Source: Dictyostelium discoideum
Taxonomy: Eukaryota
Assembly: GCA_000004695.1 (NCBI GenBank)
Contig: CM000152.2
Span: 864,001-928,000 of the forward strand
DNA length: 64,000 nt
Reading direction: 5' to 3'
Position numbers and translations under genes: made by a program
The notes under the pieces: generated by a model
Database searches by the model: none
Told to the model about the DNA's origin: nothing
Seen by the model: only the letters and a program-made list of their open reading frames with translations
Part shown: positions 34,275 through 36,389 of the stretch, in pieces
How the letters are laid out: each line of letters starts with the position of its first letter
Numbering within the stretch: the first letter of the stretch is position 1

Positions 34275-35501
34275 ATGGTGAATTTTAAATATTTTATAAT
34301 AATTTTTATAATTTTTTTAAAAAATTATTCAAATAGTTTAGATATAAAAATCTCAATTGATTTTAATTCAAAAATAGATTATAAAAATTATGAATGTGGT
34401 GGTTCGGTTGAATTTTTTAAAAACCATATTGAGTTTGTCCAAAATAAATCAATAATATATCCACTATGTAAATCATTTAATGATGCAAATCAAAGATCAA
34501 AACAATTATTTAATAATAATAATAATAATAATAATAATAATAATAATAATAATAATAATAATAATAATAATAATAATAATAATAATAATAATAATAATAA
34601 TAATAATAATAATAATAATAGGAATAGATCAACAAAACAAAGGAATGTATCATTAATATTTTTAATTGATAAAAATTATAATTGGAATAGTGATTTAATA
34701 TTTATATTTGAAAATGAAGTTTTATTTATTGAATATTATTGTTATTTTGAAATTCAAGTTGAAAATCAACCAGATGCAATTTTAACAATTGATGGATCAA
34801 ATTCAACCAATTTATTTTTAGATTACTTAGATTATTCCAATGGAATTACAACATGTGATGATGAAAATCAATTAACTAGATTAAATTTATATAATATTAA
34901 ATTTATTAATTGGCATCTTTGTATTAATATTCAAACTTATAAATCTCCAACATCATCATTAACAGAAAATAAAAAATTAACAATAAAAAAAACATTTTCA
35001 AAGTTTACAAATATAACAACAGAGAAAACATTATCATTTTTATTCTCATCATCATCATCATCATCATCATCATCATCATCATCATCATCATCATCATCAT
35101 CATCATCATCATCATCATCATCATCATCATCATCATCATCATCATCATCATCATCATCATCATCATCATCATCATCATCATCATCATCATCATCATCATT
35201 ATCATCATCATCATCATCATCATATAATGATAGAAGTAGTATTAGAGTACAAAAAAAAAATATAATTAAAAATTGTAATTTTAAAAATAATTTAAATAAA
35301 AGTAATTTTAATTTTATATTTAATGAAAATGAAATGGAGATTAATAATTGTACATTTGAAAATATAGTTACTCAAACCAATTTTATTTTAAATAATAATG
35401 ATTGTTTAAATTTTAAAATTACAAATTCAAAATTTAAAAATATAACAACATTAAATAATTTAATTTCACAATTTGATAATGTATCAATAGAATATTGTTA
35501 A
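34275..35501 (+). CDS. N-terminal fragment (408 aa) of a secreted or type I membrane glycoprotein-like protein. It has a signal peptide, a poly-Asn tract and a poly-Ser tract of about 57 residues. It terminates at a single TAA that is in frame with a further 296 open codons.
   Basis: MVNFKYFIIIFIIFLKNYSNS signal; (AAT)n and (TCA)n tracts; ends ...NVSIEYC-TAA at 35499-35501. See the linked feature and finding. Confidence 0.6.
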   Translation: MVNFKYFIIIFIIFLKNYSNSLDIKISIDFNSKIDYKNYECGGSVEFFKNHIEFVQNKSIIYPLCKSFNDANQRSKQLFNNNNNNNNNNNNNNNNNNNNNNNNNNNNNNNNNNNNRNRSTKQRNVSLIFLIDKNYNWNSDLIFIFENEVLFIEYYCYFEIQVENQPDAILTIDGSNSTNLFLDYLDYSNGITTCDDENQLTRLNLYNIKFINWHLCINIQTYKSPTSSLTENKKLTIKKTFSKFTNITTEKTLSFLFSSSSSSSSSSSSSSSSSSSSSSSSSSSSSSSSSSSSSSSSSSSSSSSSSSSLSSSSSSSYNDRSSIRVQKKNIIKNCNFKNNLNKSNFNFIFNENEMEINNCTFENIVTQTNFILNNNDCLNFKITNSKFKNITTLNNLISQFDNVSIEYC

Positions 35502-36389
35502 TTTCCATTTTTTTATAAAAGTGTTTACGAATTTAATATACCAAATAAAACAAAATTTAATAATATTAATTTTAATAATAATACTATTACTACCACTACT
35601 ACTACTATTAAAAGTGATTATTATTTATTTCAAATTAATAATCAATTTAATTTTAAAAATCAATCAAATTTAAAAAATAATGAACAACAACAACAAAAAC
35701 ACCAATATTATTCAATTAATTTTGAAAATATATTAGTAACTCCAAATAATAAGGTATCAAAAGAAATTGAAAATCTAAATTTTATAATTGTAAATGATAT
35801 GTATTCTCTTTCTTTAAAAAATATAACAATACCAAATGAAATGTTTTTTTCATCAATTTATTCTTCAAATTTAATTATTGATATTGGTTTTGATAGTTAT
35901 TCTATATTTAATTCAAAAGTATTATCAGTTGGCAGTTTTAATAAATTTATAGTGAACGTTTTAGATTCAGATATTTATGAAATTAATAAAATCATTACAG
36001 ATAAAGTAAAAAATTATATCAACAATTGTAAATATTGTTTTTTTGATTTTATAAAAACAATTAACAATTACCTTGGTAATAATAATAATATAGGATATTC
36101 AATAGTCGATGGTAGTGGTAATAATAATAGTTATAATAATAATAATAATAATGCAGTAAATAGTAATATTACTCAACGAATTGATGGTTCAAGTAAAGGA
36201 AGTGAGAATGGAGGTAATGATGCCTTTAAAAAAATAATTATAGTTCCAATAATTTTATTACCATCATTAGTATTAGTAATAGTTGGTTGCATTTTTTTAT
36301 TTAAAAAAAAGAGTGTTCCAATTGCAAAAAATAAAAATTTGGAAAATGTGGAATGTGGTATTGGTGGTGAGGAAACTCATGAAGGTTGA
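35502..36389 (+). CDS. C-terminal continuation (296 codons) of the preceding ORF in the same reading frame, reaching a TM helix plus a short cytoplasmic tail. It has no ATG until 35799. It is either the 3' part of a gene interrupted by a nonsense codon or sequencing error, or a separate gene starting at M35799.
   Basis: The frame is open from 35502 (FPFFYKSVYEFNIPNKTKFNNINF...) through ...IIVPIILLPSLVLVIVGCIFLFKKKSVPIAKNKNLENVECGIGGEETHEG*. A 300-nt stop-free frame without ATG is very improbable for non-coding AT-rich DNA. Confidence 0.45.
   Translation, partial: FPFFYKSVYEFNIPNKTKFNNINFNNNTITTTTTTIKSDYYLFQINNQFNFKNQSNLKNNEQQQQKHQYYSINFENILVTPNNKVSKEIENLNFIIVNDMYSLSLKNITIPNEMFFSSIYSSNLIIDIGFDSYSIFNSKVLSVGSFNKFIVNVLDSDIYEINKIITDKVKNYINNCKYCFFDFIKTINNYLGNNNNIGYSIVDGSGNNNSYNNNNNNAVNSNITQRIDGSSKGSENGGNDAFKKIIIVPIILLPSLVLVIVGCIFLFKKKSVPIAKNKNLENVECGIGGEETHEG

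Follow-up and report, generated by a model that had tools for sequence, protein, structure and literature searches.

A 64,000-nucleotide (nt) stretch of the Dictyostelium discoideum AX4 genome (assembly GCA_000004695.1, contig CM000152.2, positions 864,001 to 928,000 of the forward strand; hereafter the window, G+C 22.6%) contains a gene for a predicted type I membrane protein whose reading frame, starting at ATG 34275, is split by an in-frame TAA at 35499-35501. This interruption is a real feature with an ordinary explanation and is not a case of recoding, and the gene is very probably a young unprocessed (unitary) pseudogene, or null allele, of the AX4 lineage. Intact, collinear genes for proteins of 670 and 650 amino acids (aa) occupy the syntenic place in two relatives, and AX4 carries derived disabling lesions, namely the TAA and a 1-nt deletion, together with an in-frame 21-nt deletion. 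The original prediction, a reading of the window letters alone, had offered a nonsense allele or pseudogene as one of three options, and this is the one favored by the intact gene of the relatives and by the second lesion.

The relatives are represented by a Dictyostelium firmibasis locus, syntenic with window positions 20.3-41.5 kb (L001), and by loci in assemblies GCA_054859385.1 (L002) and GCA_054859355.1 (L003), both labeled D. discoideum, the latter reached via the neighboring FKBP/TPR gene. In the relatives, the gene under study sits at the same syntenic place as in AX4, between a small GTPase gene and the downstream genes.

The Interrupted Frame in AX4

Counting both stops, the frame from ATG 34275 is 705 codons long, with exactly one internal stop and the next one at TGA 36387-36389; the remaining two frames of the same span have 58 and 164 stops. 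Past the TAA, 295 codons hold no stop, where shuffles lead one to expect about 31 (P ~ 3.5e-14), and the first 99 of these, all free of ATG, hold none against 10.1 expected (P ~ 5e-5). The ATG at 35799 is the earliest ATG, GTG or TTG past the TAA. These counts bear out the original description of a frame split by a single TAA and then open for 99 codons without an ATG. The whole frame encodes 16 N-x-S/T sequons. The features of the gene, and the neighbor that anchors the synteny, are as follows:

34275..35498, + strand: 5' part of the disabled gene, 408 sense codons for a signal peptide, a Cys-containing N-terminal domain and the first β-helix-like rungs
34275..34340, + strand: signal-peptide-like leader MVNFKYFIIIFIIFLKNYSNSL, from the translation; identical in L003 and conserved in the family alignment
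34512..34619, + strand: (AAT)36 poly-Asn tract, from Tandem Repeats Finder and regular-expression counts; relatives have 5-11 Asn
35046..35222, + strand: (TCA)51 TTA (TCA)7 poly-Ser tract, in frame and unrelated to the stop; a short Ser run in L003
~35454..35455, + strand: site of the 21-nt in-frame deletion of the AX4 lineage; 7 codons lost (NSIINSY in L003)
35499..35501, + strand: premature stop TAA, from Ser TCA via C-to-A at 35500
35502..36386, + strand: 3' part of the disabled gene, 295 open codons for the remaining rungs, a Cys-x2-Cys motif, a low-complexity stalk, a transmembrane (TM) helix and the start of the cytoplasmic tail
36234..36302 (aa 654-676), + strand: TM helix IIIVPIILLPSLVLVIVGCIFLF, followed by KKK, from a hydropathy scan; conserved in the ortholog, L002 and L003
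36386..36387, + strand: site of the 1-nt deletion of the AX4 lineage; TT versus TTT in relatives (GGT TTG or GGT TTA)
36387..36389, + strand: TGA made by the frameshift, not the ancestral gene end
36386..36475, + strand: conserved cytoplasmic tail LTTQDINSIVNENATSEIDAICDETAFER, now out of frame, from the +2-frame translation; ancestral stop TAG 36473-36475
32854..33725, + strand: small GTPase gene (Ras-like), exons 32854-32951 and 33101-33725; neighbor and synteny anchor

The 5' part is collinear with the 670-aa open reading frame (ORF) of L003 and about 90% identical to it, and about 51% identical to the D. firmibasis ortholog (L001:15003-16955). In the 3' part, the codon-position GC periodicity matches that of flanking coding sequence, and this part aligns to all intact relatives. 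The relatives align end to end across the stop, which upholds the original view of the two halves as one coherent type I membrane protein.

At the sites of the two trinucleotide tracts an intact relative has about 6 Asn and 3 Ser, which points to large lineage-specific expansions in the AX4 ectodomain. The Ser tract had been described as (TCA)57, but is interrupted by a TTA.

Intact Relatives and the Origin of the Stop

L003 carries a single-exon, uninterrupted and collinear ORF of 670 codons with the same start MVNFKYFIIIFIIFLKNYSNS, the same TM helix and the end ...ETHEGLTTQDINSIVNENATSEIDAICDETAFER*, and its protein is 90% identical to the conceptual AX4 product. At the stop site L003 reads GAA TAT TGT TCA TTC CCT and AX4 reads GAA TAT TGT TAA TTT CCA. 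The AX4 stop is thus a single C-to-A substitution at 35500, a one-step derivation from the sense codon of an intact relative.

In L001, two full-length family genes flank the GTPase. The positional ortholog (L001:15003-16955) is a single exon encoding 650 aa, the paralog (L001 10001-11956) is a continuous ORF of 651 codons, and both align end to end with the interrupted AX4 frame. Around the stop, the window reads VSIEYC*FPFFYK, the ortholog IIIENCNINSFYR and the paralog INVENCSFSNFFY, with AAT and AGT, respectively, under the TAA. Across the family, the stop column holds a sense residue in 12 of 13 members (ortholog, paralog and 10 of 11 others, one being gapped), and these 12 carry 227-301 further residues past it. 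The comparison with orthologs that the original prediction had proposed accordingly finds an intact gene in relatives and a sense codon at the stop column. The paralog, RB653_004581 (P0001), was the first homolog found; as a candidate ortholog it was rejected on synteny.

Further Changes in the AX4 Gene

Three changes in this gene are derived in AX4, and two of these are disabling. The second disabling one lies at the 3' end, where the DNA alignment has GGT TGA in AX4, GGT TTA ACA in L002, GGT TTG GTT in the D. firmibasis ortholog and GGA TAT GCA in D. firmibasis copy B. Neither L002 nor L003 has the 1-nt deletion, nor does either D. firmibasis copy, and the L003 ORF passes the site in frame. 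The loss of one T in the TTT run gives an immediate TGA at 36387-36389 and throws a conserved 29-residue tail out of frame, and the ancestral gene end is the TAG at 36473-36475. Of the C-terminal end as first described, the TM helix is there, but the TGA taken for the natural end is a product of the deletion. The amino acids of the tail are identical in AX4, L002 and L003, with 3 synonymous and 0 non-synonymous differences, and the tail is conserved in D. firmibasis as VNENATSEADAVSGH and INENATSEIDAVSDETTTFDRL.

The third change is the 21-nt in-frame deletion. These nucleotides are kept in L003, in an inverted segment of L002 and, at equal length, in the D. firmibasis ortholog (DNA alignment), and family members carry residues at the corresponding columns. 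The 3' frameshift and the 21-nt deletion were absent from the original prediction, as was a 240-nt in-phase GT..AG candidate taken up below.

The ancestral gene would have been a single-exon ORF from ATG 34275 to TAG 36473-36475, for a protein with a signal peptide, a β-helix-like ectodomain and a low-complexity stalk, followed by one TM helix and a short, conserved tail in the cytoplasm. At 35500, a C-to-A transversion would have turned Ser TCA into TAA, the loss of one T from the TTT at 36386-36387 would have made the TGA and put the tail out of frame, and the deletion at about 35454/35455 would have shortened a conserved rung. Starting at ATG 34275, translation would stop at codon 409, inside the folded ectodomain, and presumably yield an unanchored fragment.

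The Protein Family

The window gene belongs to an apparently dictyostelid-only family of type I membrane proteins that has no Pfam model, typified by DDB_G0278325 (Q54YB0, 'Transmembrane protein') of D. discoideum. An exhaustive profile search with the window halves, P0001 and P0003 gave 25 representatives. Of about 20 family representatives, nearly all align with the profile as a single full-length match, and nearly all are 530-620 aa long. Those looked up by name are all dictyostelid, from D. discoideum (including DDB_G0278325), D. purpureum, D. citrinum, D. dimigraforme and D. firmibasis. No Pfam domain passed the threshold in scans of the window protein and 10 relatives, and DDB_G0278325 is mentioned in no paper found.

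DDB_G0278325, the D. purpureum proteins DICPUDRAFT_76069 and 76068, the D. citrinum and D. dimigraforme proteins and RB653_004581 have the same architecture, with full-length profile matches. They share a signal peptide, a Cys-containing N-terminal domain (ECGGS...PPCKSF...YYCYFEI...IDGSN), N-C-x-F β-helix-like repeats, a C-x2-C motif, a stalk, a TM helix and a short tail, and are single ORFs of 530-650 aa. The window copy, at about 25-50% identity to these relatives, differs in being TAA-interrupted and frameshifted at its 3' end and in its long (AAT)36 and (TCA)51+7 tracts.

An AlphaFold2 (AF2) model of an intact family member (predicted local distance difference test, pLDDT, 73.6; predicted template modeling score, pTM, 0.71) begins with a leader helix, continues as one unbroken all-β solenoid (about residues 21-456) and ends in a disordered stalk and a TM helix. 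The stop column lies midway along the modeled solenoid, and the 408-aa product would on this model be half a fold without an anchor. Foldseek matches to the PDB are weak (best E 3.8e-4, template modeling scores 0.2-0.3), and the top ones are all right-handed β-helices; one D. purpureum member bears the automatic UniRef name 'Right handed beta helix domain-containing protein'. The likeness to right-handed β-helix proteins such as pectate and alginate lyases, GH87 enzymes and phage tailspikes lies in the solenoid of short β-strands in the AF2 model; here, however, the solenoid is the predicted ectodomain of a eukaryotic type I membrane protein, and the matches are weak. There is no match to Pfam Beta_helix or PbH1, and no catalytic residues were identified.

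Selection and Age

Between AX4 and L003, the ratio of non-synonymous to synonymous divergence (dN/dS, ω) is 0.44 over the whole gene (P = 9e-5 versus neutrality), 0.59 upstream of the stop and 0.34 for the downstream frame with the tail (P = 2.6e-4 versus neutrality). Against L002, the downstream frame with the tail gives 0.32 (P = 6.8e-5), with 0.27 for the intact GTPase neighbor, and the 3' part (35502..36386) gives 0.36-0.39 against L002 and L003. Since dS between AX4 and these relatives is about 0.09-0.15, most of the divergence would have arisen while the gene was functional, and the ω values mostly predate the lesions. With D. firmibasis as outgroup, most AX4 differences are left unpolarized and power is low. 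The ω of 0.34-0.59 spans the whole divergence of AX4 from its relatives.

About 5% of possible substitutions in the downstream frame make a stop, and an untranslated frame would stay open with P = 0.64 at 1% neutral divergence and P = 0.011 at 10%. The lesions appear to be young, and the ω pattern is compatible with very recent inactivation. From dN/dS and the stop-accumulation estimate, the downstream frame is presumably open because the lesions are recent, and not because it is translated.

In window 32800-42000, the coding DNA of AX4 is about 6-8% different from that of L002 and L003 (dS ~0.09-0.15), and L002 and L003 differ from each other by 2-5%. The divergence among the three is far above what is expected for strains of one species, and the species label or population structure would merit closer study.

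A Probable Young Pseudogene or Null Allele

The locus resembles young unitary pseudogenes and strain null alleles in its ancestral syntenic site, its intact promoter-side start, its one-substitution premature stop, its second, frameshift lesion, its otherwise kept frame and the absence of a protein record. Nothing essential is different; purifying selection is still visible against the relatives, which would make this a very young case. Neither the 408-aa nor the 196-aa ORF product has an exact match in a collection of 15 billion proteins. That collection does hold the neighboring AX4 GTPase and the intact AX4 paralog DDB_G0278325. No AX4 protein for the locus came up in two word-indexed searches and one exhaustive HMMER search, the recall of such searches being imperfect. 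A search for an independent AX4-type sequence was likewise negative: the GTPase and two single-exon ORFs next to it had no locus on record, and a metagenome scan for the sequence flanking the stop gave 0 matches.

Some points weigh against this interpretation. The imperfect protein searches failed to return the D. firmibasis ortholog, itself a called gene of 650 aa, and the pseudogene annotation status of the AX4 locus is deduced solely from the missing protein record. A reference error at 35500 or 36386/36387 is still conceivable, if unlikely. Purifying selection and freedom from further lesions downstream would also be expected if the downstream half were still translated. Finally, the nearest intact allele is dS ~0.12 away, and the lesions could be specific to the lab strain, of NC4 type or widespread.

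Like the D. firmibasis ortholog, the AX4 FKBP/TPR protein never surfaced in the protein searches, and absence there is weak evidence.

Alternative Explanations

The AX4 gene might really be intact, with the TAA, and perhaps also the 1-nt deletion, being base-calling artifacts. The TAA is one base away from the intact TCA, the frameshift alters the length of a short T run by 1 nt, and the downstream frame and tail are otherwise perfectly kept. A reference error is nevertheless quite unlikely, given three independent AX4-derived changes in one gene, of which the 21-nt deletion is no base-calling error. The sequence around the two small lesions is ordinary and not homopolymeric (TGTTAATTTCC and GAAGGTTGACAACC), outside long A/T or trinucleotide tracts, and the same gene has proved dispensable in another lineage (L002). 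The (TCA)n tract, named in the original prediction as a plausible source of error, does not account for the stop, which is a single substitution about 280 nt downstream of it; length changes in the tract are in frame.

It is very unlikely that the locus makes two functional products, a secreted 408-aa N-terminal fragment and possibly a C-terminal membrane fragment from ATG 35799 or by reinitiation. Such an arrangement could draw on the start and signal peptide retained by the 5' ORF, on the downstream ω of about 0.34-0.39 and on the in-frame ATG at 35799. However, the stop falls in the middle of what is modeled as one continuous β-solenoid, so that each fragment would contain just a part of the fold. 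The ATG at 35799 corresponds to Ile in L002 and L003 (VNDIYSL), and its product would have no signal peptide. The DNA before it is not promoter-like: positions 35502-35799 have coding periodicity, 84.9% A+T and A/T runs of at most 7, whereas local intergenic DNA has 87-91% A+T and runs of 32-41. The ω values cover the whole AX4-relative divergence, mostly older than the lesions, and there is no annotated protein for either half.

Programmed readthrough, in which the TAA would be decoded as sense at a useful rate to give the full-length membrane protein, was another of the original options and is highly improbable. The long conserved open frame past the stop, its coding periodicity and its ω below 1 speak for it, and an in-frame stop followed by a long coding-like frame is also what is seen in programmed readthrough genes (UAG-CAA-UUA in tobamovirus; UGA-CUAG in animals and fungi). 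Conservation of the stop is a hallmark of programmed readthrough, yet no relative has this stop (TCA in L003, sense codons elsewhere). Known leaky contexts combine UGA or UAG with CUAG, CAR-YYA or a downstream structure; the sequence here, TAA TTT CCA TTT, fits neither of the two motifs. Unlike in readthrough genes, what follows the stop is no extension but the protein body itself (half of the fold and the anchor), and the second lesion truncates it, as a readthrough product would still meet the frameshift-made TGA and lose the conserved tail. The stop also has a simple one-step mutational origin. TAA is the standard terminator of D. discoideum, used by 88-90% of genes, and is taken as the least leaky stop (PMC7783166). 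Aggregation of eRF3 has been speculated to cause readthrough in Dictyostelium, with no case shown (PMC11537047), and no demonstrated programmed readthrough in Dictyostelium was found in the literature.

A spliceosomal intron that removes the stop, such as 35497..35736 (240 nt) or 35481..35753 (273 nt), has next to no probability and is contradicted by the kept reading frame, by codon periodicity and by the conservation of this sequence in relatives with a single exon. The two pairs are GT..AG, in phase and A+T-rich (GC 0.146 and 0.154), the shorter one reading GTTAAT...TATATTAG. Enumeration of all pairs up to 1 kb gives 124 in-phase GT..AG pairs that span the stop (the 240-nt and 273-nt pairs and 122 longer ones), which is a trivial outcome in A+T-rich sequence. 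The body of the candidates (35502-35736) is free of stops over 78 codons, where 7.7 would be expected (P ~ 1.5e-4 to 4.5e-4), and has a codon-position GC of 0.20/0.18/0.04, like the flanking exons, whereas intergenic DNA is flat at 0.13-0.16. The residues that it encodes are conserved in every intact relative, each of which is single-exon there, and AX4/L002 indels within it always come in multiples of 3. The validated intron of the window (32952-33100) starts GTAATT, is closed by stops in every frame and contains an A/T run of 13, whereas the candidates start GTTAAT or GTATCA and have A/T runs of at most 7. The original conclusion that no intron rescues the frame holds, although the 273-nt pair is not the sole short in-phase candidate, as had been stated.

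Turnover at the Locus

The same gene has been destroyed independently in L002 by a frameshift after the signal peptide, a 2.4-kb insertion, an inverted segment and tandem repeats. Sequence equivalent to window 35466-~35504 is lost at the inverted segment, and the 3' part stays open. The 2.4-kb insertion (L002 8199-10577) is flanked by 100% identical 300-nt direct repeats (8199-8498 and 10254-10553) and looks like a recent small element of the long terminal repeat (LTR) type. The three lineages labeled D. discoideum accordingly have an intact gene (GCA_054859355.1), a gene with a nonsense codon and a frameshift (AX4) and a gene destroyed by repeats (GCA_054859385.1).

Beside the inverted segment, L002 11107-12838 consists of about four tandem units of about 440 nt, each with a G/C-rich hairpin (AAAAAAGGGGGGAGGGGTAGTTTCCCCATACAAACTACCCCTCCCCC) in A+T-rich DNA. 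The TAA as a transposon-excision footprint at a TTAA target was considered and rejected: the junction "TAATTTC" belongs to the ~440-nt repeat, other copies of which carry it, AX4 has no net length change there versus the ortholog, and L002 simply lost 35466-~35504.

The window also holds what is left of another family gene:

30565..30778, + strand: decayed relic of a second family gene, equivalent to D. firmibasis paralog A and broken by frameshifts and stops

This relic reads SLEITILNDFNSNIMNGGGSI (30595-30657) and ELI*DTSIIYPPL*NYNQKSK (30716-30778) in different frames, where paralog A has SLEIIISIDFNSNI..ECGGSI..LIQDTSITYPPCKSFNDAYK. Nothing recognizable of the rest of the gene lies between the leucine-rich repeat (LRR) gene and the GTPase gene. 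An unfiltered tblastn search for more paralogs in the window was swamped by low-complexity matches, and only the relic at 30.6-30.8 kb was credible. The family thus evolves by birth and death.

In D. firmibasis, the interval between the GTPase and the ortholog contains at about L001 14097-14545 a 3'-only relic of a third copy, with a stalk, a TM helix and a tail ending ...INENATSEIDAVSDETTTFDRL*, which is not a called gene. Its tail is closer to the AX4 3' end than the tail of the ortholog is.

The Neighboring GTPase and Automatic Gene Models

The spliced GTPase product of 240 aa is an exact match to EAL68397.1 / XP_642372.1 / Q54Y30 of D. discoideum AX4, and the gene is syntenic in L001, L002 and L003. 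Automatic models in L002 (6001-8210, ACTFIR_007907, P0002) and L003 (14862-18674, 891 aa) join the GTPase to the adjacent family gene or a fragment of it. The deposited RB653_004581 model (617 aa, L001 10001-11956) takes 102 nt of an open 651-aa ORF as an intron; the piece dropped encodes the TM helix, and this intron was probably annotated in error. At this locus, the automatic models of related genomes are not to be relied on: one has the GTPase fused to a gene fragment, another has the TM helix spliced out.

Implications

The interrupted ORF of AX4 is best treated as a pseudogene or null allele, and not as two genes, an intron-containing gene or a recoding case. The locus records the turnover of an uncharacterized dictyostelid surface-protein family, with independent inactivations in different lineages, which may be of interest for cell-surface variation in social amoebae and for the use of AX4 as a proxy for wild strains. 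In this fast-evolving, dictyostelid-only surface family, the repeated nulls may perhaps be segregating through selection rather than by neutral decay, an idea that we consider rather unlikely; the selective agent could be interaction with pathogens or prey, cell-cell recognition or social conflict. If true, the AX4 reference would lack a surface protein that its wild relatives express.

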